From Rhodobacterales bacterium (GTDB lineage Bacteria > Pseudomonadota > Alphaproteobacteria > Rhodobacterales > Rhodobacteraceae), in assembly GCA_038209775.1 (NCBI GenBank), contig JBBQXK010000008.1:6649-70648 (forward strand): a DNA stretch of 64,000 nt. The letters run 5' to 3'. Position 1 is the first letter of the stretch, and each line of letters begins with the position of its first letter. The notes below the pieces were generated by a model that searched no databases, had not been told where the DNA came from, and saw only the letters and a list, made by a program, of their open reading frames with translations. This document shows positions 6,607 through 62,202 of this stretch, piece after piece. A program made the translations under genes and the position numbers.

Positions 6607-7178
6607 TGCGCGTGGCGCTGGTCCTGGCGGCGGCGCTGTTGCTGCCAACGGGGGGCATGGCACAGGAGGTGATCCCGCAAGAGGCACCCCGCGCGCCGGT
6701 ACCGCCGCCGGTGCTCGTGGTGAACCAGGACGCGATGTTTGAGCAATCGGCGTTTGGGCGCGCTGCCAAGACCCGACTTGAAGCGGCATCGGCGACGCTT
6801 GTATCCGAAAACCGCGCGATCGAAGCCGCGCTGGAAGCGGAAGAGCGCAGCCTGACCGAACGGCGTGCCAACCTGCCACCTGCCGAGTTCCGCGCCCTGG
6901 CCGAGGCGTTCAACACCAAGGTGGAAGGCATCCGAAAGGCGCAGGATTCCAAGTCGCGGTCGATCACGCGCGTGCGCGACGAAGACCGTCAGCAGTTCTT
7001 TGCCGCCGCAGCACCGGTCCTGGAACAGATCCTGCGCGAACAGGGTGCCGTGGTGGTGCTGGAACGACGGCAGGTCGTCCGCAGCCTGGAGCGGATCGAC
7101 ATTACCGCCCTTGCCGTCCGGCGAATGGATGAAGAGATCGGCACTGGCACATTGTCTGCCGAGCCGCCGCAACCCTGA
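6606..7178 (+). CDS. OmpH/Skp-family periplasmic chaperone
   Basis: Signal peptide followed by a long charged coiled-coil-like region. Located immediately downstream of bamA, with start and stop overlapping (TGATG). Confidence 0.75.
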
Positions 7179-7267
7179 CAAACCCGGCCGGTGCGGGCTG
7201 TCGCCGACTTGCCGCGTGCGGTGTGACTTGCTACTCAGAAATCAGGACCGTCAAGAAGGACACCGCG

Positions 7268-7756
7268 ATGCCTGCAGACCATCCGGCGACCCCCGCCCTA
7301 GGCACTGCTTCCACCACTGCCGACCTTGACCTGATCCAGCGGATCATTCCACACCGCTATCCGTTTCTGCTGATCGACCGGGTGCGCGATGTGGTGGTTA
7401 ACCAGTCCTGCGTCGGCATCAAGAACGTCACCTACAACGAGCCGCAGTTCCAGGGCCATTTCCCGGGGATGCCGATCCTGCCCGGGGTCATGATCATCGA
7501 GGCGATGGCGCAGACGGCGGGTGTGCTGGTCGGGTTGTCGATGGATCTGGTGGACCGCAACGCCAAGGTGTTCTTCATGGGCGTCGAGGGGGCCAAGTTC
7601 CGCCGCAAGGTGATTCCCGGCGACGTGCTGGAACTGCATGTCAAGGCGTTGCGCGGTGGAGGCCGGGTGTGGAAATTCGAGGGCCGCGCCATGGTCGGGG
7701 CCGAGCTTGCCTGTGAGGCGATCTATACTGCGATGTTCGAAGTGCCCAAGGCATGA
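7268..7756 (+). CDS. fabZ: 3-hydroxyacyl-ACP dehydratase FabZ
   Basis: [14 protein letters not shown] and HFPG.PI.PGV..IEA.AQ hot-dog motifs. ATG at 7268; the ORF track starts at 7223. Confidence 0.93.
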
Positions 7757-8547
7757 CCCACCCCACGGCCCGTATCCACCCCACGGCCCTGGTCGATCCG
7801 GCGGCAAGCATCGGTGCAGGGGTTGCCATCGGCCCCTTCGTGGTGATCGGCCCCGAGGTGACGCTGGCACCCGGTGTCACGGTCAAATCCCACGCCGTTG
7901 TCACCGGCTGGACCGACATCGGCGAGGGCAGCACGATCTTTCCCTTTGCGACCGTGGGCGAGGTACCGCAGGATCTGAAATATGCGGGCCAGCGCACCCG
8001 GCTGTCCGTCGGTGCCCGCTGCCGCATCCGCGAAGGGGCGACGCTGAACACCGGCACCGAGGGCGGCGGCGGCGTGACGCGGGTGGGCGATGACTGCCTG
8101 ATCATGACCGGCGCGCATGTGGGCCACGATGCCCAGATCGGCAACCGGGTGATCCTTGTCAATCATGTGGCGATTGCCGGGCATTGCCATTTGGGGGATG
8201 ACGTGATCGTGGGCGGCCTGTCGGGCGTCCACCAATTCGTGCGCATCGGGCGCGGGGCGATCATCGGGGCGGTCACCATGGTGACGAACGACGTCATCCC
8301 CTTTGGTCTGGTGCAGGCCCCGAGGGGAGAGTTGGACGGGTTGAACCTTGTCGGCCTGAAACGCCGGGGGGTCGAGCGGGCCGAGATCACCGCGCTGCGG
8401 GCGGCCTATCAGATGTTGGCGCAGGGGGATGGCACGTTCCTTGACCGCGCGCGCAGGCTGGCCGATGAAACCGACAGCCTTCATGTGCGCGAGTTGACCG
8501 ACTTTATCCTGTCGGCTTCCGACCGCAGCTTTCTCACCCCCAAATGA
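7753..8547 (+). CDS. lpxA: Acyl-ACP--UDP-N-acetylglucosamine O-acyltransferase
   Basis: Left-handed beta-helix hexapeptide repeats, IHPTA N-terminus and a C-terminal helical domain. fabZ-lpxA context. Confidence 0.93.
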
Positions 8548-9362
8548 CCGGCCGCACCGCGCTGATTGCCGGCCGTGGCACCTTGCCCGCCACGCTGTTC
8601 AGCGCCGCCGCCACCCCCCCGTTCGTGGCCGCAATCGAGGGGTTCCCCCCCGATGGCCTGACCCCCGACCTGACCTTTCGTCTTGAACGTCTGATGCCAT
8701 TCCTTGCCGCGCTGCATGATGCGGGGGTCGATCGGGTGGTCTTCGCAGGGGCCGTCACCCGCCCCGCCAGCATCGAGGCCGGCCTGGTCGATCCGGCCAC
8801 CGCAACCGTCCTGCCAGCACTTCTGACAGCAATGCGGGCAGGCGACGACGACGCGCTGCGCGCCGTGATCGCGTTGTTTGAAGGAAATGACCTTGCCGTT
8901 GCAGGCCCGGGTGACCTTGCCCCGGACCTCATGCCGGCCGCGGGCCTGCTGACCGGCACCCTGTCGGCCCGGGATGAGGCTGACGCCGCCCGTGCCGCGC
9001 TGATCGTCGATGCCCTTGGCCGCGTCGATGTGGGGCAGGGGGCTGTGGTGCAGCAGGGCCTTTGCCTTGCGGTCGAGGCACTGCCGGGCACCGATGCGAT
9101 GCTGGCCGATGTGGCGCGCATTGCCCCCGCGCTGCGCCCCGGTTCGGCCATGGGAAGGGGTCTGTTGTACAAGGCCCCGAAACCCGGGCAGGACCGCCGC
9201 ATCGACCTGCCCACCATCGGCCCAGCCACCGTGGCCGCAGTGGCGGGTGCGGGCCTTGGTGGCATTGCGTTTCAGGCAGGGGGCACCATTCTTCTGGACC
9301 GCGCCGCCACCATCGCCGCCTGTGACGCGGCGGGCCTGTTCCTGTGGTCGCGCGCACCATGA
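8544..9362 (+). CDS. lpxI: UDP-2,3-diacylglucosamine pyrophosphatase LpxI (DUF1009 family)
   Basis: Lies between lpxA and lpxB, as in alphaproteobacteria that lack lpxH. N-terminal LIAG.G.LP and C-terminal DLPTIG motifs. Start and stop overlap both neighbours. Confidence 0.8.
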   Translation: MTGRTALIAGRGTLPATLFSAAATPPFVAAIEGFPPDGLTPDLTFRLERLMPFLAALHDAGVDRVVFAGAVTRPASIEAGLVDPATATVLPALLTAMRAGDDDALRAVIALFEGNDLAVAGPGDLAPDLMPAAGLLTGTLSARDEADAARAALIVDALGRVDVGQGAVVQQGLCLAVEALPGTDAMLADVARIAPALRPGSAMGRGLLYKAPKPGQDRRIDLPTIGPATVAAVAGAGLGGIAFQAGGTILLDRAATIAACDAAGLFLWSRAP

Positions 9363-10489
9363 AGCTGTTCCTCGTGGCAGGCGAGCCTTCGGGTGACCGG
9401 CTGGGGGGCGCGCTGATGGCCGGGCTGGCTAGCCTCGCCCCCGGGATCGCCTATGACGGCATCGGCGGGCCCGAGATGGAGCGGCAGGGACTGCACAGCC
9501 GATTTCCCATGCAAGAGTTGTCGGTGATGGGCATTGCCGAGGTGCTGCCGAAATACCGGCACCTGAAACGCCGCATTGCCGAGGTGGCGGCGGCGGTGAT
9601 TGCCATGAACCCCGACGCCCTTGTCACCATCGACAGCCCCGATTTTTGTCTGCGCGTGGCAGCACTGGTCAAGGCGGCGCGGCCCGATCTGCGGACGATC
9701 CACTATGTGGCACCTTCCGTCTGGGCGTGGCGGCCCGGGCGCGCGGCGAAAATGGCGCGGGTGATCGACCACGTTCTGGCGCTGTTGCCGTTCGAGCCGC
9801 CCCTTATAACCGCCGCCGGCATGACCTGCGATTTCGTGGGCCACCCTGTGGTCGCCGAACTGCTGGCCACACCGCGCGAATCAGACGTGTTGCGCGGGTC
9901 CAGCCCGCTGATCCTGGCCCTGCCCGGATCGCGCAAGGGCGAGGTTATCCGTCTGGCTCCCGTCATCGGCACGACCCTTGCCTTGTTGAAGCCCCGCTTT
10001 CCCGGCCTGCGCGTGGCCTTGCCGACGGTGCCGGCGCTTGGCCCCCTTGTCCGCGATCTGGTGCGCGACTGGCCGGTTCGCCCCGAGGTGATCGAACAGG
10101 CGGACCGCAAGCGTGCGGCTTTTGGCGCGGCGGATGTCGCGATTGCAGCGTCGGGCACAGTATCGCTGGAACTGGCTGCGAATGCCTGCCCGATGGTGAT
10201 TGCCTATGACATGCACCCGATCACCCTGTGGTTGATGCGGCGCATGGCGCAGGTGGATACGGTGACGCTGGTGAACCTTGTCAGCGAAACGCGCGTCGTG
10301 CCCGAGTTCATCGGCCGCGACTGCCGAGCCGCCCGCATCGCCCCCGCCCTTGCACGGCTTTTGACCGACCGGCAGGCGCAAGAGGCACAGCGCGAAGCGA
10401 TGGCGGTGACGATGCTACGATTGGGGCAGGGGGGCGAGGCACCGGGGGTGCGGGCCGCGCGGTCGGTGCTGTCAGTCCTCGGCGCGTAG
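9359..10489 (+). CDS. lpxB: Lipid-A-disaccharide synthase
   Basis: MKLFLVAGEPSGD N-terminus, IHYV.PSVWAWR and ASGTVSLE blocks. ATG at 9359; the ORF track starts at 9344. Confidence 0.9.
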   Translation: MKLFLVAGEPSGDRLGGALMAGLASLAPGIAYDGIGGPEMERQGLHSRFPMQELSVMGIAEVLPKYRHLKRRIAEVAAAVIAMNPDALVTIDSPDFCLRVAALVKAARPDLRTIHYVAPSVWAWRPGRAAKMARVIDHVLALLPFEPPLITAAGMTCDFVGHPVVAELLATPRESDVLRGSSPLILALPGSRKGEVIRLAPVIGTTLALLKPRFPGLRVALPTVPALGPLVRDLVRDWPVRPEVIEQADRKRAAFGAADVAIAASGTVSLELAANACPMVIAYDMHPITLWLMRRMAQVDTVTLVNLVSETRVVPEFIGRDCRAARIAPALARLLTDRQAQEAQREAMAVTMLRLGQGGEAPGVRAARSVLSVLGA

Positions 10490-10538: not shown

Positions 10539-11687
10539 CTACCGCCCCCGCCAGATCCAGCCGCCGCCCAGTACCCGTGACCCCTCGGGTGCATAGAACA
10601 CGCAGGCCTGACCGGGGCTGACCCCCTCTTCCGGGGACAGAAGCTCCACCTCGGCCTCGGTGTCCGACAAGGGCCGGATCACCGCCTCACGCGGGAGGCG
10701 GGTGGACCGGACGCGTGCCATCACAGGCCATTCGGTGCGCGAGGTCAGGGGCGCGTCGCCCAGCCAGTTGATTTCGCGCAGCGGCACCACACGGGTCGAC
10801 AGCGCCGCCTTCGGCCCTACGATCACCCGCCGCGTCGCGGGGTCCAGCCGCACGACATACAACGGATCCTCCAGCCCCCCGATCCCCAGCCCCTTACGCT
10901 GTCCGATGGTATAGTGGATCACCCCCCGGTGCGTGCCCAGAACGGTCCCCGCCATATCCACAATCTCACCCGGGTCCGCCGCCCCCGGCCGCAGCTTTTC
11001 GATCACTGCCGCATAATTGCCGTCGGGAACGAAACAGATGTCCTGACTGTCCGGCTTGTCCGCCACCGGCAGCCCGAACCGCGCGGCCAACGCCCGCGTT
11101 TCGGCCTTCGACTGCAGATGCCCCAACGGGAAGCGCAGGTAATCCAGTTGTGCCGGGGTGGTCGAGAACAGGAAATAGCTTTGATCCCGCGCCGCATCCG
11201 CCGCTTGGTGCAGTTCCGCCCCCGCAAGCCCCATTTTGCGCTGGATGTAATGCCCGGTCGCCATGCAATCGGCATCCAGATCGCGCGCGGTTGCCATCAG
11301 GTCCTTGAACTTCACCCGCTCGTTGCAGCGGATACAGGGCACCGGCGTGGCCCCCGCAAGATAGGCATCGGCAAACTCGTCGATCACCGCGTCGCGAAAG
11401 ATGTTCTCGTAATCCAGCACATAATGCGGAAAGCCCATCGTCTCGGCCACCCGGCGCGCGTCATGGATATCGCGCCCGGCACAGCAAGCCCCCTTTTTCG
11501 CAAGGGCCGCGCCGTGGTCATAAAGCTGCAGGGTCACCCCCACCACATCATACCCCTCAGCCGCCAGCACCGCCGCCACCACCGACGAATCAACGCCGCC
11601 CGACATCGCCACCACGACGCGGGTATCGGCAGGGGCCTTGGGCAGGCCCAGCGAATTCAGGGGTTGGTCAAGCATGTGCGGGGCCAC
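10539..11687 (-). CDS. mnmA: tRNA 2-thiouridine(34) synthase MnmA
   Basis: PP-loop [13 protein letters not shown], catalytic Cys blocks (CCAGRD.., IPCIRCN), DSQDICF. Confidence 0.93.
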
Positions 11688-11799
11688 CTTTCAGACCCGC
11701 TGCAATATAGGAAAATGCAACACACTCGCAACCCACGCGTTTCACCCTTGCTTAAGCGTGATCCGCCTAGAGTGGCCGTCAAGAGATGAGGGTTCCGTG

Positions 11800-12078
11800 A
11801 TGTATCTCAAACGTGTTGACGGTCCGCGTCAGATCACCCTGCCGGACGGCAGCGTGCTGTCGCGCGCCGATCTGCCTCCGGGCGACACCCGTCGTTGGGT
11901 GGCCAGCCGCAAGGCAGTCGTGGTGCGGGCCGTGGTCTATGGTCTGATCACCGAATCCGAGGCGCTGGAACGCTATGCGTTGTCGCCCGAAGAGTTCGAT
12001 CTGTGGCGCCGCGCGATCGAGACGCATGGCGAGGCGGCCCTCAAGGTCACCACGATCCAGAAGTATCGACAACTTTAG
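11800..12078 (+). CDS. sciP: SciP-like small transcriptional regulator (DUF1153 family)
   Basis: 92-aa protein with LPP.DT.RWV.SRKA.VV.AV..GLI....A..RY.LS.EEF..W......HG..ALKVT..Q.YR, matching the Caulobacter SciP/DUF1153 pattern. It lies directly upstream of ctrA, as described for Rhodobacter. ATG at 11800 inside ORF 11638..12078. Confidence 0.75.
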   Translation: MYLKRVDGPRQITLPDGSVLSRADLPPGDTRRWVASRKAVVVRAVVYGLITESEALERYALSPEEFDLWRRAIETHGEAALKVTTIQKYRQL

Positions 12079-12116
12079 GTTGTTTTTCACTCAGGCTCTG
12101 GCAGAGTAACGCTCGA

Positions 12117-12144
12117 TTAACCATTGGCCTCCAATGTCGTTAAC
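12117..12144 (+). promoter_or_regulatory. Candidate CtrA-box half sites upstream of ctrA (TTAACCAT at 12117..12124, GTTAAC at 12139..12144)
   Basis: The exact 8-mer TTAACCAT lies about 50 nt upstream of the ctrA ATG. A second TTAAC lies 23 nt further on. The inverted repeat CCATTGG/CCAATG overlaps the site. Confidence 0.3.
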
Positions 12145-12173
12145 AATGATGGCGCTGATGCGGAGTTTTGAAG

Positions 12174-12887
12174 ATGCGGTTGCTGCTGGTTGAAGATGAC
12201 CCCACCACCTCGCGCAGTATCGAATTGATGCTGACCCACGCGAACCTGAACGTCTATTGCACCGACCTTGGCGAGGACGGGATCGACCTGGCCAAGCTGT
12301 ATGACTACGATCTGATCCTGTTGGATCTGAATCTGCCGGACATGTCTGGCCACGATGTGCTGCGACAGTTGCGCATGGCACGGATCGACACGCCGATCCT
12401 GATCCTGTCCGGATCTGACGATACTGACAGCAAGATCAAGGGCTTCGGCTTTGGTGCCGATGACTATATGACCAAGCCCTTCCATCGTGAGGAGCTGGTC
12501 GCGCGCATCCACGCGATCATCCGACGGTCCAAGGGCCACGCGCAATCGGTGATCCGTACGGGCAAGGTGGCGATCAACCTTGATGCCAAGACCGTGGAGG
12601 TTGAAGGCAAGACGGTGCATCTGACCGGCAAGGAATATCAGATGCTGGAACTGCTGTCCTTGCGCAAGGGCACCACGCTTACCAAGGAGATGTTCCTTAA
12701 TCACCTGTACGGCGGGATGGATGAGCCGGAACTCAAGATCATCGACGTGTTCATCTGCAAGTTGCGGAAAAAGCTGGCCGAGGCGACCGGCGGGCAGAAC
12801 CACATCGAAACGGTCTGGGGTCGCGGCTATGTGCTGCGCGATCCGGGTCCGGCCACTGCGATGCCGCGTCTTGCCATCGGCGCCTGA
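12174..12887 (+). CDS. ctrA: Cell-cycle response regulator CtrA (OmpR-family)
   Basis: MRLLLVEDD...[14 protein letters not shown]...[10 protein letters not shown] receiver domain plus a winged-helix output domain ([12 protein letters not shown]). Very high resemblance to alphaproteobacterial CtrA. GGAG lies 8 nt upstream of the ATG at 12174. Confidence 0.93.
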
Positions 12888-12897
12888 CTTGTCCTGA

Positions 12898-17159
<4,262 letters not shown>

Positions 17160-51799: not shown

Positions 51800-52633
51800 T
51801 CAGATTGCAACTTTCCGTGACCGCATGACAGTAGGGGAATCCATACCATCCCCGGACGGACGCACGAAGATCAGGTTCAGAAGCGTGCCCTTGGCCACCG
51901 CATGCGCCGTGGTGTCCACATTCAGCGCCTCACGCGCCAGACGCAGATGCTTTTCCACCATCGCCGCCGATACGCCCATCAGGACCGCCACATCGGCCAT
52001 CGTCTTGCCGTCGGCCGCCCATTCCAGCGCTTCGCGCTGGCGCGCGGTCAGGTCGCGGCGGACGTGGGCGGCGGGCAGGCTGGCGATGCGCAGGTGCATC
52101 ATCTGCGCCACGGCCATCATCGACGGACCTTGCGCGTCCCAGATCCGGTCAACATCGTCATGGCCAAGCCCCGCATCCGCAGTCAGCCCAAGCGCGCCCT
52201 TGGTCCGGCTGGCCACTTCGGGGAAACTGATGGCGATGCCCGCGACGATGCCGAAGCGCGCGTTCAGGCGCACCGCCTCGGCCTCTTCGTCGGGCAGGCG
52301 GCCTGCGGCATAGTCCTGTTGCACCCAACGCCATGTGGTCATGCCGGTATTCCGCAGCGCCCAGCGATAGACCGGCGTCTTCGCATAGAACCCGCCACGG
52401 AAGTACAACCGCGAATACTCGGGGTCGGAGGTTGAAAGATACAGCGCATCATCGGGATCGCCGATCGAGCGTTCGGTGCGGAACCGGGTAAGTCCATAGT
52501 TCAGCCGCCGAAACCCCAGTTCGGCAAAATACGCGCAGGCCGGTGCCCAGGCAGCATCCACGCAGTCGGCCTGCGCAATGCACCCGAGAAGTTGCAAGAC
52601 TTCGGCCACCTGATCCTGTCCGTGCAGTGCCAA
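51800..52633 (-). CDS. LuxR-family transcriptional regulator (autoinducer-binding-like N-domain plus GerE HTH), solo
   Basis: C-terminal LT.RQREAL.W.A.GKT..D.A..MG.S...V..HL......L HTH. The N-terminal domain has Y...Y........TP and G...G spacing like QS LuxR receptors. No luxI-like gene in the window. TTG start; exact start uncertain. Confidence 0.8.
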   Translation of the reverse strand: MALHGQDQVAEVLQLLGCIAQADCVDAAWAPACAYFAELGFRRLNYGLTRFRTERSIGDPDDALYLSTSDPEYSRLYFRGGFYAKTPVYRWALRNTGMTTWRWVQQDYAAGRLPDEEAEAVRLNARFGIVAGIAISFPEVASRTKGALGLTADAGLGHDDVDRIWDAQGPSMMAVAQMMHLRIASLPAAHVRRDLTARQREALEWAADGKTMADVAVLMGVSAAMVEKHLRLAREALNVDTTAHAVAKGTLLNLIFVRPSGDGMDSPTVMRSRKVAI

Positions 52634-52736: not shown

Positions 52737-52778
52737 CTGTCTGGATTACATAATATTGATTATAGGATAATCAGACAG
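52737..52778. promoter_or_regulatory. Long imperfect palindrome CTGTCTG(G)ATTA-N19-TAATCAGACAG enclosing a 28-nt AT-rich core
   Basis: Read directly. It lies 105-145 nt upstream of the LuxR-solo start and overlaps the stop codon (52771..52773) of the flavoprotein gene. It could be a regulator site, a promoter element or a terminator-like hairpin. Confidence 0.3.
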
Positions 52779-53946
52779 CCTGACCGGCCACCCAAGCCGA
52801 CGACCAGGCCCATTGAAAGTTGTACCCCCCCAGCCACCCCGTCACATCGACCACCTCACCGATGAAGTGCAGCCCCGGCACCGCGCGCACCTCCATCGTG
52901 CGTGCGTCCAGTGCGTCGGTGTCGACGCCGCCCAGCGTGACCTCGGCGGTGCGGTAGCCTTCGGTGCCGACGGGTTTCAGTTCCATTGCATGGACTTGTG
53001 CGGCGATCCTGTCGAGGGTTGCATTACCCTGATCGGCCAGATTGCCTGTGGCGTTGCTGCGCTGTTCGACAAGGCGGGCCAGCCGTTCGGGCAGAACCTG
53101 CCCAAGGGCCGTGCGCAAGGCGATCCGGCCCGAGGTGGCCCGCTGGGCACGCAGATAGGCCGCCATATCGTGATCCCGCGCCAGATCGACCACCACGGGC
53201 ATGCCGGGCGACCAGTAGCTTGACGCCTGCAGCACCGCCGGGCCCGAAAGGCCACGATGGGTGAAAAGGATAGCCTCATCAAACCCTTGTCGGCCGGCAT
53301 TCACCCTGCCGTTGACAGACACCCCGGCCAATGGGCGCAGCCATTCAAGCTCTTGTTCGGCAAAGGTCAGGGGCACAAGCCCGGGGCTTGTTTCGACCAA
53401 GGGTACACCAAACGTGCGGGCAATGTCATAGCCCGCACCGGTGGCCCCCATCTTGGGAATGGACTTGCCGCCGGTGGCCACGACCACCCTGCCCGCCGTT
53501 ACCGTACCGCGTGAGGTTTCAACCGCAAAGCCTTGTTTATCTTTCATAACACTGGCGAAACTTGTGCCCGTCCACAGTGTGACCCCCGCCCGTTCGGCAT
53601 CGCTTCGCAACATGGTCACGATCTGTTTCGCCGACCCGTCGCAGAACAACTGCCCCAGCGTCTTTTCATGCCAGGCAATGCCCGCCGCGTCGACACGCGC
53701 GATGAAATCGCGTGCGGTGAACCGGCGCAGTGCGGATATCGCAAAGCGCGGGTTGCGGCCCAGGAACCGGGCCGGGTCCACCCCCAGATTGGTGAAGTTG
53801 CACCGCCCCCCGCCCGAGATCCGGATCTTTTCGCCGACCGTCGCGCCATGCTCGATCAACAGCACGCGGCGGCCGCGCCGTGCCGCCTCGGCCGCGCAGA
53901 ACAGTCCCGCTGCCCCTGCCCCAAGAATGACGACATCAACCTGCAT
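52771..53946 (-). CDS. NAD(P)/FAD-dependent oxidoreductase (HI0933/BaiN-like flavoprotein)
   Basis: N-terminal VVILGAGAAGLFCA dinucleotide motif, GGGRCN and a C-terminal GE..DV.G..GGYN.Q.A..SG block. Confidence 0.85.
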   Translation of the reverse strand: MQVDVVILGAGAAGLFCAAEAARRGRRVLLIEHGATVGEKIRISGGGRCNFTNLGVDPARFLGRNPRFAISALRRFTARDFIARVDAAGIAWHEKTLGQLFCDGSAKQIVTMLRSDAERAGVTLWTGTSFASVMKDKQGFAVETSRGTVTAGRVVVATGGKSIPKMGATGAGYDIARTFGVPLVETSPGLVPLTFAEQELEWLRPLAGVSVNGRVNAGRQGFDEAILFTHRGLSGPAVLQASSYWSPGMPVVVDLARDHDMAAYLRAQRATSGRIALRTALGQVLPERLARLVEQRSNATGNLADQGNATLDRIAAQVHAMELKPVGTEGYRTAEVTLGGVDTDALDARTMEVRAVPGLHFIGEVVDVTGWLGGYNFQWAWSSAWVAGQAV

Positions 53947-54047: not shown

Positions 54048-54122
54048 TGGGGCGTCGCCAAGCGGTAAGGCATCGGTTTTTGGTACCGACATACCTAGGT
54101 TCGAATCCTAGCGCCCCAGCCA
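54048..54122 (+). tRNA. tRNA-Gln (anticodon TTG)
   Basis: Almost co-linear with E. coli tRNA-Gln: TGGGGCG-TC-GCCAAGCGGTAAGGC-A-TCGGT-TT-TTG-GT-ACCGA-CATAC-CTAGG-TTCGAAT-CCTAG-CGCCCCA-G-CCA. Confidence 0.95.
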
Positions 54123-54128
54123 ACATTC

Positions 54129-54749
54129 CTATTCTTCGGGTGCGTCGTCGTCGCCCACATCTTCGACCACCAGCGCCGGTTTTGCCTTGCGTGCGGCGCG
54201 TTCGGCATCGGTCGGGGTGACCGGAACGCCGGTTGCGCCGACGAACTGCGGGTTGGGTGACGGTGTCGCACCCGAGGGCGGGAATGGCGTCAGCGACACC
54301 GCGCGGAAGATGTCCGGCCCAAGCGTGACGCCCGCGTCACCCACATCAACCTCGACCCGGTAGGGCAAGGGGATCGGGGCGCTGTAGGCGAAGAACACCA
54401 GCCTGGTGCCTTGATAGGCGGGCGCGGTGATCCCTGCGAAATCGGGCATCCCGTGATCGCGCAGGCGGTAGACGCCGGCCTTCCACGCCGCACCCGGGTC
54501 TTCGCCCGCCACCTGTGCGCGATACGACGCCTCATACCCTGCCGGGTCGGTGATCACGCGGTAATCGGTGCCGCTGGCAAAATGCGCCACTGCGCGCGCC
54601 ATGGACGTGGCCGCATCCGGATGCAGCAGGCCCGGCGCCGCCGCCACCAGTGCGGCCAGCGAGCCGACTTCGGTATCGCCTTCGACGATGACCACGCTCT
54701 GGCTTGCGTCGTCCACGCCGAGAACCACCTGAGGAATGCCGTCTGTCAT
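54129..54749 (-). CDS. Hypothetical 206-aa protein with an acidic C-terminal tail, partner of the large upstream protein
   Basis: AAGGA lies 8-9 nt upstream of the ATG, within a 28-nt AT-rich spacer after the upstream stop. Host-like GC3. No signal peptide, TM segment or recognisable family. The stop is 7 nt from the tRNA-Gln 3' end. Confidence 0.6.
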   Translation of the reverse strand: MTDGIPQVVLGVDDASQSVVIVEGDTEVGSLAALVAAAPGLLHPDAATSMARAVAHFASGTDYRVITDPAGYEASYRAQVAGEDPGAAWKAGVYRLRDHGMPDFAGITAPAYQGTRLVFFAYSAPIPLPYRVEVDVGDAGVTLGPDIFRAVSLTPFPPSGATPSPNPQFVGATGVPVTPTDAERAARKAKPALVVEDVGDDDAPEE

Positions 54750-54777
54750 GTGTTTTTCCTTTTTGTATCAGGTGTTG

Positions 54778-57700
54778 TCAGTCGATCTTCGCCCATTCGG
54801 CATCAATCCAGTCGCGCGTGACCTTTATCAAAGACCCGGGCGGCACGATTTTCTGCCACATGACCGGATCGCCTGTGTTGGGATCAGGTGCGATGACAAA
54901 GAACCTGTGATCCGCGCCGCTGCCCCAGTTGGTATCGGCAATCACAAACTCGGGTGCGCCGAGGTCGGTCATCATCCGCTGGGTCAGCTTGTCGGTCAGG
55001 ACCTTTTCATAGGCGGCGGCCTCTTCGACCTTGCGCTTGTCGAAATCGGTGTCCGACACCACTTCACCCTTGTCGGTCTTGCCCTTCTTCCAGTCCGCGG
55101 CATCCTTGTCACCGCGGATCTTGTTGGCGTCCTTGCTTGCCGCCTTGACGGCAGCCGTCAGTTCGGCCGGGGTTACCGGAGCCGTCGGTTTGTGGGCGGC
55201 GATGCCGTCGGTGTAGGCCTTTTTGAGTTCGGGGGTCTTTGCCCCGTCAAGCCAGGGCTGCAGTTCCTTCATGAACATCTCGACCGCCTTGTCGACGGGC
55301 ACCTTGGTGTCGCGCAGATCGCGGCCGGGTTTCAGAAGATTGTCCTCCATCGCCTTGTCGCGCTTGGTCTGGGTGTCGCCCTTGAGTTTGTCCAGCGACG
55401 GGTGGTTCGGCAGGGCGTTGAAGCCGTGCATGCCGACGGTGCGCAGGGTGATCATGTCGTCGGTCTTGCCGGTCATGCCGGTCATAAAGCCCGCGAGAAG
55501 ATCCTTGGTGCGGGTGGGCTCATCCGGTGGCGGTTTACCGGCCCCGGCGGTCATCTGCGTTTGGCTCAGGGTGGCACCGTGCAGGGCCTGCGTCGCTTCG
55601 GTGGTCTGGCCGCCGCTGCCAAGTTCCCAGGGCAGGTATTCATCGTCTTTCGCGGCGCCGAACACCTGGGTTACGGCGTTGATGAAGGCGTCGGATTTCA
55701 CATGATCCTTGACCGTGGCAGCCTCGGGCGCATCCTTGTCGATGCCAAGGGATGCCAATGCGACGGTTGTCATCGCTTCGATGAAGTCTTCCTTCTTGCG
55801 GATTTCCTTTTCGGGGCTGAGCAGCTTGAGGATATAGCGCCCGCGATCGGACGAGCCGTCGTTGCTGTCTTTGACCTCGTCCATCGGGTCGTAGATGAAG
55901 CTGAAGGCCGCGGCCACGTCACCCTTCAGCTTGGTCAGGCGCAGCGCCGCTTTCTTGTCTTCCTCTTCTTGCTTCTTTTTCTGTTCTTCGGGCGGCAAGC
56001 CGCTGTTTCCAGACAGGTTCTTGGTCTTGATCGCGTCGCTCAGCGTGGTCAGGCCCGCGTTGTTGGCTGACCCGAGGCTGGCCTTGGTGGAACTGGTGGC
56101 GCGCTGTGCGGTCGAGGTGGCCAGCGAATATTCCCAACTGCGCATGACCGGATCGTCGCCGGGGGGCGTGTTGGTGACGACGGCCACTTCGGGGCCAAAG
56201 GGCGGCTTGTACTTGCCGGTGCCCGCGATCTGGGCATAGGCCCCCATCGCGCCCAAGGGATCGGTTTCGCGCATCCGCCGCGTCGGTGCCGTGGAAAAGC
56301 ACGATCCGACCGGCCCCTGATCCAGAGGTTTGAGCATCGAGGCCATGACCGAATTGCGGACGTCGTCCTTGTCCACCGCATCGGTATCGCCCTTGCCCGT
56401 GGCGCGGCGGACAAGGCTTTGTGCATTGGGATCAGTCGGTTCCGGCACACCCTTCAAGATATCGCCGGCCTTTGTCGCGTTGGCGGGATCCTTGAGGAAC
56501 CCTACGGTCTTGAGCATATGCGACGACAGCGCCGGGCGCGGGTTCGACAGGACATCGGGGTTGAACAGCGCGTCGCCGATGGCACCCTTGGCCTCGTCGC
56601 TGTCAACATCGACTGACCCGTCGTCCTTGACCATGGCTTTGCCGACCGACATCGTCCGGCGCTGTTCAAGTTCGCCAAAGCTGCCCGATCCCGCCTCACC
56701 CGTCGGATCATCACCGAACTGGCGACCGGTGGCCATGTAGCCATCGATCCGGTCAAAGTATTCCGGGCCGACGCTGCCACCCATCTTTAGCAACTGGTCG
56801 GCGTACTTTGCCGAATATTCCTCGGACATCGTCGAGGTGCCGTCGGTGAACCCTGCATCCTTGAGGTCGATCATCTTGCCAAGGTTGCCCGCCACCGCCT
56901 CGTGGTGATCGCCGGTACGGACGGATTCGAGGGCCGTGGCCGTCAGGTCGGGGTCGCGGCTCGCACCCTTGATGATTTCCAGCGCCCCCCCGCCCGAGAA
57001 TTTCTTGGGTGCGTTTGGCGACAGCGGACCGGTCGTGATCGCATCTTCGATCACCTTCTTGCCCTTGGCGGCCTTTTCATAGGCTTGCGCCTTGGACAGC
57101 GCCGCCTGCGCGTCGGCGATGGCCTTTTGCGCGGCCTTGACGGCCTTGTTGCGCTTGCCGCCCTTGCGCATCGCGTTGGCGTCTTCAAGGGCCTGTTGCG
57201 CATCCGACAGCAAGGTCTTGGCGGCGCCGGTATCTTCGGATGCCTTGGCCAGCACCTCGGGGGTGATTTCGATGTCACCGCCCAGGGTTTCGTCAAAATC
57301 CTGAAGTGCCGCCTGCGCGGCAAGTGCGGCCTCGGGATAGTCGCCCGCGATGGCCAGAAGTTTGGCGTTGTCCTTCACGAACTCGGCCGCCTTGCCGAGA
57401 CCGTCCTTGACCGCCTGGCTGATCTTGTCGACCAGCGACATCACGTCACCCACGATGCCGCCACCGCCTTCAACGGTGTCTTCAGTCTTTTTGCCGCCAA
57501 AGACGCCCTTCACCGTTTCCTTGATCTTCTTGAAGATGTTGCCATCACCCGCGCCGTCACCTTCGGGGCCTGCCAGTCCGTCGCCCTGCGGCGGGCCACC
57601 GGCGTTGTCGTTGCCCTGCGGCGGCGGCGGTGCCGTTGGCGGCTGCACGCCGGTGTCGCCCGGCTGGGCCTTGGCGAGTTCCGAGGTCGCCATGTTGCGC

Positions 57701-58554
57701 AACAGCGACAGGATCTGTCCCGATTTCTTGAGGTCACGCTCAATCTCGGCCTTGAACATGCCGATAAGCGAGGTCACCTTGCCGGTCACAGCCTTGTCCG
57801 CACCTTGAAGCAACGTGCGAAGATCGCCGCCCATCACACTGAATTCCTGCACAAGCTTTTCGCGCAGACCAGCCTCGTTCTCACCGCTGTTGTTGCCGCC
57901 GCCGGCCAATTGCCGCAGACCGGCCTCAACCGCCTCGATCAGCTTTTCAGCGCGGTCAAGGCCCGCATTTGCCATCTCGGTGGCGGCGGTCTGGACGGCC
58001 TTTGACAGCTTGTCGACACCCGGCAGGGCGCGGGCAGCGGCGTCGCGCAACTGGGGCACGATTGCCTTGATGCGGTTCGCCAGCGCCGCCTTGCGCGCGG
58101 CATCGGGATCGTCCTGCGTCTGGGCCGCCTCGGCCACGGTTTCGGCAACCGCGACCTCATTCCCCTCGGTCACTTCGACGTTGCCGTCGTCATCGCTGTC
58201 TTCGATGCGCTGGCCGTTCGGCAGGATCACCACCACCTTCAGCGGCAGTTTCATCGACATGAAGTGCTTTTTGGCCAGTTTCGGCAGGTTGGCAGGGAAT
58301 TCGTCTGTCGTGACCGTCATCTCCAGCGTCTTGCCAGAGGCGGTCATCGTGCCCGTCATCGAAATGGCGGGAAGGCCGCCTGCATCCTTGGCGGCGCGGA
58401 ACATGACATCGCAGCTTTTCAGCGGATGCGCCTTGAGAACCACGCCCTCTTTTGCCTTGAGAAGGGCAAAGTTATGGGGCTTTTTCTTGCAGTCCCTGAC
58501 GATCTCTTCCAGTTCGGCAACCGAATTGCCGATCGTGGCGTCATCCTTGGCCAT
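54778..58554 (-). CDS. Large (about 1,258 aa) uncharacterised multidomain protein with a Pro/Gly-rich linker and a putative papain-like Cys motif
   Basis: Single uninterrupted ORF (the track gives 54778..58632). GGAGG lies 6 nt upstream of ATG 58554 (MAKDDATIG...). Lys/Asp/Ala-rich. No signal peptide, TM segment, P-loop, RTX, Rhs or YD motifs seen. LDQGPVGSCFSTAP motif at 56284..56325. Confidence 0.8.
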   Translation of the reverse strand: MAKDDATIGNSVAELEEIVRDCKKKPHNFALLKAKEGVVLKAHPLKSCDVMFRAAKDAGGLPAISMTGTMTASGKTLEMTVTTDEFPANLPKLAKKHFMSMKLPLKVVVILPNGQRIEDSDDDGNVEVTEGNEVAVAETVAEAAQTQDDPDAARKAALANRIKAIVPQLRDAAARALPGVDKLSKAVQTAATEMANAGLDRAEKLIEAVEAGLRQLAGGGNNSGENEAGLREKLVQEFSVMGGDLRTLLQGADKAVTGKVTSLIGMFKAEIERDLKKSGQILSLLRNMATSELAKAQPGDTGVQPPTAPPPPQGNDNAGGPPQGDGLAGPEGDGAGDGNIFKKIKETVKGVFGGKKTEDTVEGGGGIVGDVMSLVDKISQAVKDGLGKAAEFVKDNAKLLAIAGDYPEAALAAQAALQDFDETLGGDIEITPEVLAKASEDTGAAKTLLSDAQQALEDANAMRKGGKRNKAVKAAQKAIADAQAALSKAQAYEKAAKGKKVIEDAITTGPLSPNAPKKFSGGGALEIIKGASRDPDLTATALESVRTGDHHEAVAGNLGKMIDLKDAGFTDGTSTMSEEYSAKYADQLLKMGGSVGPEYFDRIDGYMATGRQFGDDPTGEAGSGSFGELEQRRTMSVGKAMVKDDGSVDVDSDEAKGAIGDALFNPDVLSNPRPALSSHMLKTVGFLKDPANATKAGDILKGVPEPTDPNAQSLVRRATGKGDTDAVDKDDVRNSVMASMLKPLDQGPVGSCFSTAPTRRMRETDPLGAMGAYAQIAGTGKYKPPFGPEVAVVTNTPPGDDPVMRSWEYSLATSTAQRATSSTKASLGSANNAGLTTLSDAIKTKNLSGNSGLPPEEQKKKQEEEDKKAALRLTKLKGDVAAAFSFIYDPMDEVKDSNDGSSDRGRYILKLLSPEKEIRKKEDFIEAMTTVALASLGIDKDAPEAATVKDHVKSDAFINAVTQVFGAAKDDEYLPWELGSGGQTTEATQALHGATLSQTQMTAGAGKPPPDEPTRTKDLLAGFMTGMTGKTDDMITLRTVGMHGFNALPNHPSLDKLKGDTQTKRDKAMEDNLLKPGRDLRDTKVPVDKAVEMFMKELQPWLDGAKTPELKKAYTDGIAAHKPTAPVTPAELTAAVKAASKDANKIRGDKDAADWKKGKTDKGEVVSDTDFDKRKVEEAAAYEKVLTDKLTQRMMTDLGAPEFVIADTNWGSGADHRFFVIAPDPNTGDPVMWQKIVPPGSLIKVTRDWIDAEWAKID

Positions 58555-58739
58555 CAATTCCCTCCAAAACGGCAGGTTCCGGGGCCGGTCACGCACAATT
58601 TCCGGTACGGAACAGATCACAACAATCGTCATGTCCTAGCATGCTGCCGGTCGGCCTGTAAACCGGCTTGATCGGGTTTCCGGTCACCGGGCAAGCCCGG
58701 GGGCGCGCGGAAATTCTGTGTGTCAACTGTATGACAGGA

Positions 58740-59846
58740 CTAGGATAATTCATCTTGAAGAAGGGTCTGCACCGATTGGGGCGGTACATTCTCTGCGACG
58801 AAGGCCTGCCCGATCCCGCGTGCCAGCACAAAGCGCAGGCGTCCGTCGATCACCTTCTTGTCCTGCCCCATCAGTGCCAGCAGCGCCGCCGCATCGGGCA
58901 GGTCGCCCGCAATGTCGCGCAGGCCCGATTTCATGCCCATCGCCACCAGATGCGCGCGCACGCGGCCAGGCTCTTCCTGCGCGTACAGGCCCAGCCGTTG
59001 GCTCAGATCAAAGGCCAGACCACAGCCGATGGCCACCCCTTCGCCATGCAGCAGCCGGTCGGAGTATCCGGTGGCCTTTTCCAGCGCGTGACAGAAGGTG
59101 TGCCCAAGGTTCAAAAGCGCGCGCTCGCCTTCTTCCGTCTCATCCCGTTCGACGATGCCCGCCTTCATCTGAACCGAGCGCAGGACGGCATGCTGGCGCA
59201 GGTCGCGGTTGCCAAGGGCTATGGCCGGGCCGTTGACCTCAAGCCAGTCGAAAAAGCCTGCGTCCCCGAGAAGGCCATACTTCACCACTTCGCCGTACCC
59301 CGCCAGAAGGTCGCGGCGCGGCAGCGTATCCAGAAGGGCGATGTCGGCCAAGACCAGCGAAGGCTGGTGAAACGCGCCGACCAGGTTCTTGCCCTGCCCC
59401 GTGTTGATGCCGGTCTTGCCGCCGACCGAACTGTCAACCTGTGCCAGAAGCGTTGTGGGGATCTGCACGAAGCGCACACCGCGGCGCAGGATGGCGGCGG
59501 CGAACCCCACCAGATCGCCGATAACGCCGCCGCCAAAGGCAACGACGACATCGCGACGCTCGACCTTCGCCTCCAAGAGCCATTCGACACAGCGGGCAAG
59601 CTGAGCCCAGCCCTTGGTCGCCTCGCCTGCAGGCAAGACCAGCGCCTGCACCGCGATGCCCTGGGCGGCAAAGGCACTGCGCAGCCGGTCCAGATGCAGC
59701 GCTGCGACGGTCTCGTCGGTCACCACCGCCACCCGCGGCCGCGTCAGAAGGGGGGCTATTTCCGCACCCGCGATATCGGTCAGACCGGGGCCGATCCGCA
59801 CGTCATAAGACCGGGCACCCAGTGCCACGCGAACGACATCGATCAT
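58740..59846 (-). CDS. aroB: 3-dehydroquinate synthase
   Basis: GGGVIGDL.GFAA, GGKTGIN and HT..HA.E metal-binding blocks. Overlaps aroK by 4 nt. Confidence 0.95.
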   Translation of the reverse strand: MIDVVRVALGARSYDVRIGPGLTDIAGAEIAPLLTRPRVAVVTDETVAALHLDRLRSAFAAQGIAVQALVLPAGEATKGWAQLARCVEWLLEAKVERRDVVVAFGGGVIGDLVGFAAAILRRGVRFVQIPTTLLAQVDSSVGGKTGINTGQGKNLVGAFHQPSLVLADIALLDTLPRRDLLAGYGEVVKYGLLGDAGFFDWLEVNGPAIALGNRDLRQHAVLRSVQMKAGIVERDETEEGERALLNLGHTFCHALEKATGYSDRLLHGEGVAIGCGLAFDLSQRLGLYAQEEPGRVRAHLVAMGMKSGLRDIAGDLPDAAALLALMGQDKKVIDGRLRFVLARGIGQAFVAENVPPQSVQTLLQDELS

Positions 59847-60539: not shown

Positions 60540-60674
60540 ATGGGACGGATCATCAAGGCGGTGGCGGTGCTGGTGGTGCTGGGGTTCATCGGGCTGACGG
60601 CCTATGCCTATCTGGCCGACCTGACGCCCGCGCAGACCGAGGTGACCAAGCCGGTGGTGCTGGATGGGCAATAA
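60540..60674 (+). CDS. Candidate 44-aa single-pass membrane protein (MGRIIKAVAVLVVLGFIGLTAYAYLADLTPAQTEVTKPVVLDGQ)
   Basis: Hydrophobic helix and high GC3. It overlaps the start of the downstream 512-aa gene by 11 nt, which suggests translational coupling. An alternative ATG is at 60519. It is the tail of the artefactual ORF 59985..60674. Confidence 0.4.
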   Translation: MGRIIKAVAVLVVLGFIGLTAYAYLADLTPAQTEVTKPVVLDGQ

Positions 60675-62202
60675 GGCGCGGATGGCGGTTCTGTCGCTGG
60701 TCTTGGCCGGGCCGCAGGCGGCTTGGGCCGAAGCGCCGATGTCGGCCATCGACTGGCTGTCCGAATCGGTATCGACGGCTGCCGTGGCCGTGGCCCCGGC
60801 CGAGCCGCCGGTGTCGGGGCCTGTCACAGTGCCCGAGGTGGCGGTGACGGTGCTGGGTCAGCCCACGCTTGATGCGGCGGGGGTGCTGCCGTCATCGGTC
60901 ACCGGCCTGCCGCGCGCGCTGTGGGGGCTGGGGCGGACGGATGAGATTGTGGCCGAACTGGCGGTCGACCGGTCTGATGTGCTGCCGGCGCTGAAGGGCA
61001 TGCTGTTGACCGTGCTGCTGGCCGAGGCCGAGGCGCCGGCCGACAGCAACGGCAAGGGCGCGCTGTTGCTGGCGCGGCTGGACAAACTCTTGGCACTGGG
61101 CGCGCTGGATCAGGCCGAGGCGCTGTTGCAGGCGGCGGGCGTGGCCAGCCAGCCCGACCTTTTCCGCCGCACGTTCGATGTGGCACTGTTGACCGGAACC
61201 GAGGACCGGGCCTGCGAGACGATGCGGTCCACTCCGAACCTTGCGCCGACGTTTCAGGCCCGCATCTTCTGCCTTGCCCGCTCCGGTGACTGGAATGCCG
61301 CCGCCCTTACCTTACGCACCGGCGTGGCGCTGGGGCACCTGACGCCCGCGAACGAGGCGCTGTTGTCGCGGTTTCTGGACCCTGCCCTGTCCGACGGCGC
61401 GCCACCCCTGCCCCCGCCCCATCCGGTGACGCCGCTTGACTGGCGGATGATGGAGGCCATCGGCGAGACGCTGCCCACCGGCAACCTGCCCCTTGCCTTC
61501 AGCCATGCCGAGTTGCGCGACACTGCCGGCTGGAAAGCCCAGATCGAGGCGGCCGAGCGTCTGTCGCGGGCGGGGGTGGTGGCGCCGAACCTGCTGCTGG
61601 GTCTGTATACCGCACGGTCTCCGGCGGCATCGGGCGGCGTGTGGGACCGGGTGGCGGCGTTCCAGCGGTTTGACGCGGCGCTGACGCGCGGCGATGTGGT
61701 GGCGCTGGACACCGCCCTGCCCCGCGTCTGGAACGGCATGGTCGAGGCCGAACTGGAGGTGCCGTTCGCACAGCTTTACGCCGAGGCGTTGATGCGGCAA
61801 CCGCTGACCGGGCCTGCGTCGGACCTCGCCCTGCGCATCGCCCTTCTGGCACCGCAATATGAAAAGGCGGCACTGACGCGCGATCCGGGGGGCGATGCGG
61901 TCGAGGCGTTCCTGTTGGGCGTGGCGCGGGGTGATGTGGCGGGGCTGACCGCGCCCGATTCGCTGGCGCGCGCCATTGCGGCCGCCTTTGCCGCCCCCGA
62001 TCCCGGGCCGGACCTGTCGGCGTTGCTGGATGGCAACCGTCTGGGCGAGGCGATCCTGGGGGCCATCGACCGGGTTGCGCTGGGCGTTCAGGGCGATCTT
62101 TCGGGGGTGACGCAGGGGCTGTCACTGCTGCGCCGCGTGGGGCTTGAGGATGTGGCGCGGCGCACGGCGCTTGAGTTGCTGCTGCTGGAGCGGCGCGGAT
62201 GA
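60664..62202 (+). CDS. Secreted Ala/Leu-rich hypothetical protein (512 aa)
   Basis: Signal peptide MGNKARMAVLSLVLAGPQAAWA followed by a helical-repeat-like composition. 4-nt overlap with xerD. No family recognised. Confidence 0.65.
   Translation: MGNKARMAVLSLVLAGPQAAWAEAPMSAIDWLSESVSTAAVAVAPAEPPVSGPVTVPEVAVTVLGQPTLDAAGVLPSSVTGLPRALWGLGRTDEIVAELAVDRSDVLPALKGMLLTVLLAEAEAPADSNGKGALLLARLDKLLALGALDQAEALLQAAGVASQPDLFRRTFDVALLTGTEDRACETMRSTPNLAPTFQARIFCLARSGDWNAAALTLRTGVALGHLTPANEALLSRFLDPALSDGAPPLPPPHPVTPLDWRMMEAIGETLPTGNLPLAFSHAELRDTAGWKAQIEAAERLSRAGVVAPNLLLGLYTARSPAASGGVWDRVAAFQRFDAALTRGDVVALDTALPRVWNGMVEAELEVPFAQLYAEALMRQPLTGPASDLALRIALLAPQYEKAALTRDPGGDAVEAFLLGVARGDVAGLTAPDSLARAIAAAFAAPDPGPDLSALLDGNRLGEAILGAIDRVALGVQGDLSGVTQGLSLLRRVGLEDVARRTALELLLLERRG

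Follow-up and report, generated by a model that had tools for sequence, protein, structure and literature searches.

We analysed a 64,000-nt stretch of contig JBBQXK010000008.1 from a Rhodobacterales bacterium (the whole stretch is called the window below), and focused on two adjacent genes that lie between a tRNA-Gln gene and aroB: a large gene and, directly downstream of it, a small gene that we call the partner. A first-pass annotation made from the letters of the window had delineated the two genes, regarded them as an orphan module, and likened them to an effector or toxin with a chaperone or immunity protein. Both open reading frames (ORFs) were indeed present on the minus strand, and the locus is laid out as follows.

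54778..58554, minus strand: large gene, 1,258 amino acids (ORF); N-terminal domain, helical regions with a linker, and conserved C-terminal module
54129..54749, minus strand: partner gene, 206 amino acids (ORF)
58561..58565, minus strand: GGAGG ribosome-binding site, read in the sequence, 6 nt before the ATG at 58552-58554
54750..54777, minus strand: AT-rich spacer of 28 nt, read in the sequence, with AAGGA at 54757-54761
54048..54122, plus strand: tRNA-Gln(ttg), found by ARAGORN, convergent with the partner; its 3' end is the downstream limit of the variable cassette
58740..59846, minus strand: aroB (3-dehydroquinate synthase), upstream of the large gene; its 3' end is the upstream limit of the variable cassette

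Read from its first in-frame ATG (58632), the large ORF would span 54778..58632 and encode 1,284 amino acids. This start was ruled out by the N-termini of the homologues and by the ribosome-binding site: the MAKDD N-terminus that results from the start at 58554 is common to all homologues (alignment A1), and the GGAGG lies just upstream of it. We therefore took 58554 as the true start, as had been proposed. The large protein is 100% identical to P0001. The AT-rich spacer with its AAGGA was also as described earlier, and the gap between the partner stop codon and the 3' end of tRNA-Gln came to 6 nt rather than the 7 nt first reported. The short intergenic gap suggests that the two genes are co-transcribed. 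Simple promoter and terminator scans at the locus gave background levels only, and the GC content of the module (0.61-0.66) was only mildly lower than that nearby (0.60-0.72). The identity of aroB is supported by its syntenic orthologues at loci L002 and L040, whose products carry the DHQ_synthase and DHQS_C domains.

The module turned out not to be an orphan. In a word-indexed search the large protein had 14 relatives and the partner 19, every one of them unnamed or 'hypothetical', and an exhaustive search with a profile of the C-terminal 759 residues of the large protein recovered a sizeable family of 713 clusters (at 50% identity) at E ≤ 1e-3, with 175 of these at E ≤ 1e-30. When species-representative genomes were scanned, we observed 47 loci, nearly all in Rhodobacterales (Gemmobacter, Pseudorhodobacter, Tritonibacter, Epibacterium, Sulfitobacter, Tateyamaria, Sedimentitalea, Szabonella, Albibacillus and Parasedimentitalea) and a few in Acetobacteraceae, with two copies in several genomes. 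A scan of viral contigs gave no relatives of the module, and a phage or prophage origin was rejected on this ground. The earlier impression that the large protein carries no recognisable motifs of known kinds was borne out: nothing rose above noise in Pfam or NCBIfam and there was no PDB sequence match, and Pfam, NCBIfam, PADLOC and PHROGs returned no match for both proteins and the long relatives. No description of the family was found in the literature searched or in any of the libraries searched.

The two genes were almost always found together. In the six contexts retrieved first, a small gene lay 28-61 nt downstream of the large gene in every case (6/6), and at other loci the gap was ~60 nt at most, or the genes overlapped slightly. 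These small genes are homologous down to 31-35% identity across a core of ~145 amino acids. A six-frame hidden Markov model search detected a partner homologue directly downstream and on the same strand at all loci with downstream sequence (52/52), and the pairwise identity of the modules was correlated with that of the partner cores (r = 0.84, 1,176 locus pairs, Mantel p ~0.001). Starting from the partner, a scan of metagenome contigs with a narrower partner alignment gave 13 loci; a large gene was present upstream at 10, and two were cut by contig ends. Of the 11 informative loci, 10 have the partner accompanied by the large gene. The single exception is an orphan partner (L063:5001-5537) with no large gene upstream. 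It is flanked by an oppositely oriented radical-SAM-like gene upstream and by an HNH-motif gene on the other side (both identified by eye), and a second partner copy stands at the edge of L063 (406-858).

Paralogous pairs within one genome were usually very divergent, their modules being 26-31% identical. One metagenome-assembled genome (MAG), L042, carries two complete big-small pairs in tandem (4890-9791 and 10976-15374), which share 26% identity in the module and 36% in the partner. Two MAGs have the large gene broken into a pair of consecutive ORFs (L049:8504-12258; L050:8252-12287), with the partner intact downstream. The splits could be due to frameshift, pseudogenisation or assembly error; taken at face value, they suggest that the pair may be dispensable.

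We compared the tRNA-Gln-to-aroB interval across relatives, and observed a hypervariable pair between conserved flanks. The flanking proteins at this slot were 72-86% identical to those of the window in L002, L006, L036 and L040, and showed the same similarity in L001, L003 and L005 where the flanks were captured. The large protein at the slot ranged from 77% down to ~31% identity to that of the window, and the pair was only ~31% identical at loci where the flanking proteins were 71–79% identical. Compared as DNA, the window ceased to resemble L036 and L040 ~50 nt before the aroB stop codon, and the similarity resumed exactly at the 3' end of tRNA-Gln. The sole patch that aligned inside the cassette was ~200 nt long (window positions 56166-56372, with L040:10799-11005 and L003:3577-3715), and it encodes residues ~745-813, which include Q746, C752 and E808 of the candidate active-site region considered below. 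Since the flanks are conserved and the breakpoints are sharp, we regard the pair as a replaceable cassette. The comparison indicates that the cassette has probably been replaced by recombination in the conserved flanks, or else that it has diverged extraordinarily fast. In L040, a Gemmobacter MAG, ~2 kb are inserted between the partner and tRNA-Gln (12850-14667) and code for an FAD oxidoreductase with a twin-arginine translocation (Tat) signal (sulfide:quinone reductase-like, by eye) and for a small membrane protein, so the slot also takes unrelated cargo.

The tRNA-flanked position had been offered as support for an effector or toxin. When 30 loci were scanned, tRNA-Gln adjoined the pair only in the lineage that uses the aroB slot, and no tRNA lay near the pair at the other 26. 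The repeat search gave no direct repeat of the tRNA 3' end (54100-54122), and no island integrase was found, the only recombinase being a syntenic XerC/D-type gene several kb away. A tRNA-integrated genomic island was rejected on these three counts. As the adjacency is peculiar to the slot of one lineage, it is no evidence for a classical integrated island, and the support drawn from it falls away.

We clustered the neighbours at ~50 loci. Besides the partner, no gene recurred with the large gene across loci. The recurrent neighbours were lineage-specific housekeeping blocks, namely aroK-aroB, a MalK-type ATP-binding cassette (ABC) ATPase, CNNM/CorC, NadA, an NadB/SdhA-like protein, a TRAP transporter, a NuoF-like protein, an aminotransferase, an epimerase, LysR and the XerC/D-type recombinase. 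As this clustering, together with Pfam on the recurrent neighbours, returned housekeeping genes only, a linked secretion, mobility or defence context was rejected. At 11 loci (L016, L017, L023-L026, L030, L033, L034, L045 and L046) the pair adjoins the gene for the MalK-type ABC-transporter ATPase, with a median gap of 86 nt. This site may be another slot for recurrent insertion, comparable with that between aroB and tRNA-Gln.

The large protein has a pI of 5.3 and three cysteines in total. It contains no hydrophobic stretch (over 19 residues the Kyte-Doolittle value peaks at 1.07), in keeping with the earlier remark that it has no transmembrane helix. It can be divided into the following parts, with the Pro/Gly-rich linker at the position first assigned to it.

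58180..58554, minus strand: N-terminal domain of ~125 amino acids ('N125', KKKPHNFALLKAKEGVVL...), conserved in alignment A1; one of several exchangeable N-terminal types
57058..58179, minus strand: variable helical regions (residues ~126-295 and 340-499) around the linker; least conserved part of alignment A1
57538-57669, minus strand: Pro/Gly-rich linker, residues 296-339, read in the sequence
54781..57057, minus strand: conserved C-terminal module, residues 500-1258, the family-defining unit (profile search and AlphaFold2 model)

The region that precedes the module varied from 71 to 1,046 amino acids across relatives, and at least four N-terminal types could be distinguished. The N125 domain was present in 51-52 of 133 full-length relatives. 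In at least 45 relatives it is replaced by a motif 'LTxxQxxFLxxYLG' at the extreme N-terminus, and further types start with 'SWWxKExPxxLKKS' or with a zinc-ribbon-like sequence. Helical repeats in variable number follow every one of these types. Since the N-terminus varies while the module stays, we consider the module together with the partner to be the constant functional unit, and the N-terminal third can be exchanged among family members.

Some of these N-terminal regions deserve mention. In P0039 (1,502 amino acids), residues ~100-760 consist of about ten tandem helical repeats of ~60 amino acids, 'TDPxxA...ALxxLKxERxxAxxALxDxLPTPxQ...AxxAIxAF', and it seems that the repeat number sets the length of the N-terminal region across the family. 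The short N-terminal motif, written more fully as 'M..(D)LTxxQxxFLxx(F/Y)L(G/K)', occurs among P0037-P0160 (for example in P0054, P0092, P0101, P0156 and P0160). It has the look of an amphipathic leader, and could be a targeting or export signal; it faintly recalls double-glycine-type leaders, but its spacing differs. The second half of N125 (GKxLEMTV...LPKLAKKHF...KVVVILPNG; alignment A10) gave ~12.6 bits against SUMO-2/3 (E ~1 per single chain), and two N125 members touched Pfam CIDE-N. A beta-grasp-like fold of N125 is possible; the signal is not significant and too weak to build on.

A pair of this kind might also be a lineage-specific protease or scaffold with a regulatory subunit, inherited vertically and acting outside any conflict, for example in envelope or polar organisation. 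Conserved housekeeping synteny in several lineages, the lack of mobility genes and a GC content near that of the surroundings would all fit this view, and the long helical regions and the Pro-rich linker resemble those of alphaproteobacterial scaffold proteins. It is, however, difficult to reconcile with the contrast in identity between the pair and its flanks, with the sharp breakpoints, or with the presence of very divergent paralogues in one genome. The apparently disrupted large genes of L049 and L050, the orphan partner and an N-terminal architecture that is not conserved speak against it as well, and we consider it quite unlikely.

We then looked at what is constant in the module. Across 29 divergent members, only 16 of its ~760 positions were invariant: Q746, G747, G750, C752, T755, G780, E808, Y888, D899, G900, S902, W976, H1043, N1209, W1210 and G1211. 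The rest of the module averaged ~35% pairwise identity. The Cys motif to which the first-pass annotation had drawn attention proved to be the key feature, with C752 invariant throughout the family. When conservation was counted over 226 family sequences, Q746 and C752 were each conserved in 203/203, H1043 in 214/216, N1209 and W1210 in 215/215 and D1207 in 211/215. The motifs lie at the following positions.

56290..56319, minus strand: Q746-G-P-V-G-S-C752-F-S-T755, candidate oxyanion Gln and nucleophile Cys (conservation; AlphaFold2 model)
55849..55860, minus strand: D899-G-S-S902, invariant (D899 and S902, 205/205)
55417..55428, minus strand: H1043-G-F-N1046, candidate general-base His (conservation; AlphaFold2 model)
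54922..54936, minus strand: D1207-T-N1209-W1210-G1211, candidate third catalytic residue and shielding Trp (conservation; AlphaFold2 model)

Other residues were nearly strict: E808 in 'RSWEYS' (201/203; 56135-56137), Y888 (201/205; 55894-55896) and W976 (205/208; 55627-55629). Together with D899-G-x-S902, they may belong to a substrate site or to another functional centre.

The AlphaFold2 model of residues 500-1258 was confident (predicted local distance difference test score, pLDDT, 87.7; predicted template modelling score, pTM, 0.82). In this model a loop leads into a helix that starts with C752 (model residue 253), and a beta-strand (model residues 544-548) starts with H1043. D1207 and N1209 lie at the end of the next strand (model residues 704-708), beyond a helical insertion of ~150 amino acids, and more antiparallel strands follow. 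Papain (family C1) has Gln19, Cys25, His159, Asn175 and Trp177. The family shows the same order, Gln-x5-Cys ... His ... Asn-Trp-Gly, with the clan CA spacing between Gln and Cys. In both, a helix opens with the Cys, and successive strands carry the His and the Asn, so that the modelled placement of these three residues is in keeping with the topology of the papain catalytic core. From the order, spacing and invariance of the motifs and from their predicted secondary structure, we infer that the module may act like a clan CA thiol hydrolase. It differs from papain and clan CA in that no profile or fold similarity to them was detected, in carrying inserts of ~290 and ~160 amino acids between the catalytic elements, and in the additional invariant motifs E808, Y888, D899-G-x-S902 and W976.

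The partner is made up of a conserved alpha/beta core of acidic character (residues ~1-155) and a tail (~156-206) that is variable, acidic and rich in Pro. In the window it contains no cysteine and has a pI of 4.4, and the core is strongly acidic across the family (median pI 4.2). In the AlphaFold2 model, residues ~8-150 had pLDDT values above 95; the tail was of low confidence and disordered, and it is confined to the clade of the window. Partner relatives were always standalone proteins of 145-207 amino acids, with no fusions and with no Pfam domains.

Based on these observations we put forward, tentatively and as something a little short of probable, that the pair comprises a novel thiol hydrolase that is neutralised by a cognate inhibitor or immunity protein and that serves in some biological conflict. 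The C-terminal module of ~760 amino acids would be a thiol hydrolase (a peptidase, an amidase or a related enzyme) of papain-type arrangement, heavily decorated with helical insertions. C752 would be the nucleophile and H1043 the base, N1209 (with D1207) would orient the His, Q746 would form the oxyanion hole, and W1210 would act as a shield. The acidic partner, made from the same transcript, would bind the large protein as its cognate and neutralise or gate the enzyme within the producing cell, in the manner of an inhibitor or immunity protein. The N-terminal third (with N125 in the window and other motifs in relatives) and the variable spacer of helices would be exchangeable targeting or delivery parts, and the cassette might move between genomes via recombination in the conserved flanking housekeeping genes. 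Part of the effector or toxin idea of the first-pass annotation finds support here, in the near-obligate and co-evolving pair, the hypervariable and replaceable cassette, the divergent and tandem paralogous pairs, the orphan partner, the invariant Cys/His/Asn and the small acidic partner. Other parts of it do not, as neither protein matched a known toxin, immunity or chaperone family or fold, and linked secretion, delivery, mobility or defence functions were missing. We commit ourselves no further for this reason: the pairing, the co-evolution and the invariant centre favour the proposal, yet a delivery route is missing and the domain logic runs opposite to that of polymorphic toxins.

A number of results weigh against a neutralised thiol hydrolase, and they concern the enzyme, the partner and the setting. 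For the enzyme, Pfam gave no peptidase family, either on the full-length protein or on 27 insert-free cores at E values up to 10. PDB profile searches with the module and with the insert-free core returned no protease and no C1 chain. When the core was aligned by hhalign with a papain-family (C1) alignment (compiled by hand and verified against PDB), the probability was 5% and the motifs did not align. A Foldseek search with the 759-residue model gave a best E of 2 against PDB and of 0.59 against BFVD; the long inserts may defeat the gapped local alignment of Foldseek and so explain this null result. The family also has N-W where papain has N-S-W. Membership of peptidase family C1 was thus not supported by Pfam, PDB profiles or hhalign, and membership of a known peptidase family is not established. 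For the partner, a PDB profile search gave no match, the best Foldseek hit of its model against PDB had an E of 0.66 (template modelling score ~0.17), and no inhibitor, immunity or chaperone family or fold was matched. For the setting, the large protein has no signal peptide and no PAAR, VgrG, Rhs, CdiA, LXG or RTX domain, and neither a secretion system nor a known delivery domain, a mobility gene or a defence island accompanied the pair in any of ~60 contexts. At some loci the pair is stably embedded among syntenic housekeeping genes, and the domain logic is the reverse of that in classical polymorphic toxins, with a conserved C-terminus and a varying N-terminus.

The negative results on the enzyme are what one would expect if Cys, His and Asn had a structural or a metal- or ligand-binding role, and the large protein were a non-enzymatic binding protein with an obligate partner, since none of the tests for homology or a shared fold with known hydrolases was positive. 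We regard this as very improbable. The exact Gln-x5-Cys spacing and the N-W-G in canonical order are unlikely to be a coincidence, and all of these residues are ~100% conserved in a module that otherwise averages the low identity given above. Of the three Cys in the large protein only one is invariant, so a metal cluster does not come into question.

In a further alternative, the large protein is a secreted effector directed at eukaryotes such as algae or protists, as hosts or as grazers, and might be a protease of ubiquitin-like proteins, and the partner is its export chaperone rather than its inhibitor. Many of the hosts (Sulfitobacter, Epibacterium ulvae, Tritonibacter, Tateyamaria) are alga-associated roseobacters, the Gln-x5-Cys...His...Asn arrangement is also found in clan CA deubiquitinases, and N125 gives its faint SUMO/beta-grasp-like signal. 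Class I secretion chaperones are small and acidic, and the partner resembles those of the type III secretion system (T3SS) in its ~145 amino acids and its pI of ~4.2. However, no solved structure matched the partner model, so no chaperone fold in PDB matches it either, and the SUMO signal is not significant. No secretion system was linked to the pair in any context, and no T3SS genes were seen among the recurrent annotated neighbours. The partner, moreover, co-varies with the C-terminal module even though the N-terminus, the usual chaperone site, is swapped, and the family has members in the freshwater genera Gemmobacter and Pseudorhodobacter as well as in Acetobacteraceae. An export chaperone with an anti-eukaryotic effector therefore appears improbable to us.

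Finally, an intracellular anti-phage system of the abortive-infection type can be considered, in which the N-terminal and helical parts would be a sensor, the Cys/His module an effector protease, and the partner an inhibitor, a decoy or an activated substrate. A variable 'sensor' fused to a conserved 'effector', hypervariability at a fixed slot, a patchy distribution, and paralogous and tandem copies are all in line with it, and without secretion signals or genes the cytoplasm is the default location. Against this, PADLOC on five family members returned 0 families, and the ~60 contexts held housekeeping genes rather than defence genes or a defence island. The module was not found on viral contigs, and no NTPase or nucleic-acid-sensing domain was present. 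We consider such a system unlikely.

Systems that unite an enzyme and its cognate neutraliser in a variable cassette are known, and we compared the pair with three kinds of system. Cpe1 toxins are papain-like proteases followed by co-evolving Cpi1 immunity genes, and their C39-like domain is compact and joined to a delivery module of the PAAR, VgrG, Rhs or CdiA type (PMC12136450). The likeness is that a candidate Cys/His hydrolase gene is followed by a small gene (the immunity proteins have 79-239 amino acids there, and the partners 145-207 here), that the small protein and the enzyme vary together in identity, and that both systems occur in Gram-negative bacteria. A co-evolving small gene downstream, as in Cpe1/Cpi1, was found here with the pairing (52/52) and correlation (r = 0.84) given above. 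Unlike Cpe1, the module is ~760 amino acids long and has no detectable similarity to C39 or to any other Pfam peptidase, and there is no known delivery domain and no linkage to a type VI secretion system or to contact-dependent inhibition (CDI). PAAR, VgrG, Rhs and CdiA/CdiB modules were absent from the protein of the window and six long relatives (by Pfam) as well as from the recurrent neighbours at ~50 loci.

In the staphopain/staphostatin, SpeB/Spi and Bacteroides C10 systems, cysteine proteases are co-transcribed with adjacent genes for small cytoplasmic inhibitors, which are mutually unrelated and protect the cytoplasm of the producer (PMC3462683). A candidate cysteine enzyme gene beside a small cognate gene is what we see here too. 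Those enzymes, however, are secreted zymogens with signal peptides, of families C47 and C10, whereas the large protein has neither a signal peptide nor a family match, and the partner matches no inhibitor in PDB. Polymorphic toxins are described by Zhang et al. (2012; PMC3482391) as having a conserved N-terminal trafficking part and a variable C-terminal toxin. Shared features are a large modular protein with a cognate small gene, several divergent copies in one genome, a small gene that stands alone, and replacement in the manner of a cassette; it is the C-terminal module and partner that are constant here, and the N-terminus that varies (at least four types). In the libraries and literature searched, the family and both predicted folds are undescribed, and so is an architecture that keeps the C-terminal module and the partner constant, swaps the N-terminus and has no known delivery module. 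A bolder form of the proposal is that the pair represents an unrecognised conflict system of Rhodobacterales, in which a new class of decorated cysteine hydrolase and a neutraliser of new fold go with interchangeable N-terminal elements (N125, the 'LTxxQxxFLxxYLG' motif and others) that would represent one or more new trafficking or targeting signals, independent of the known effector markers of type I to type IX secretion systems, CDI and extracellular contractile injection systems; we regard this as rather doubtful.

Some genes further from the pair were also noted. Beyond the tRNA lie a LuxR-type regulator (51800-52633) and an HI0933-like flavoprotein (52771-53946), whose orthologues in L001, L002 and L006 carry Autoind_bind and GerE (the regulator) and HI0933_like (the flavoprotein). 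As no luxI was seen in the regions examined, the regulator may be a LuxR solo. On the other side, beside aroK, an ORF of 512 amino acids (60664-62202) has a signal-peptide-like N-terminus (MGNKARMAVLSLVLAGPQAAWA). Its synteny is kept in L002, L006, L036 and L040, and the L002 orthologue has no Pfam match.

Among the bacteria of marine and fresh waters, the Roseobacter group and related Rhodobacterales are dominant and of ecological importance, and the ways in which they antagonise others and defend themselves are poorly catalogued. The pair described here is a well-defined and tractable candidate enzyme–neutraliser system, with ~700 clusters, a confident predicted structure, no annotation, strict pairing with a co-evolving partner, and cassette-like replacement at housekeeping slots. 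C752, H1043 and N1209 are available as targets for mutagenesis, and cultured hosts exist in Tritonibacter litoralis, Epibacterium ulvae, Sulfitobacter, Tateyamaria armeniaca, Sedimentitalea xiamensis and Szabonella alba. If the catalytic prediction is true, the pair would represent a new family of cysteine hydrolases together with a new inhibitor or immunity fold, and if the N-terminal elements are delivery signals, they could reveal an unknown route of export or targeting.

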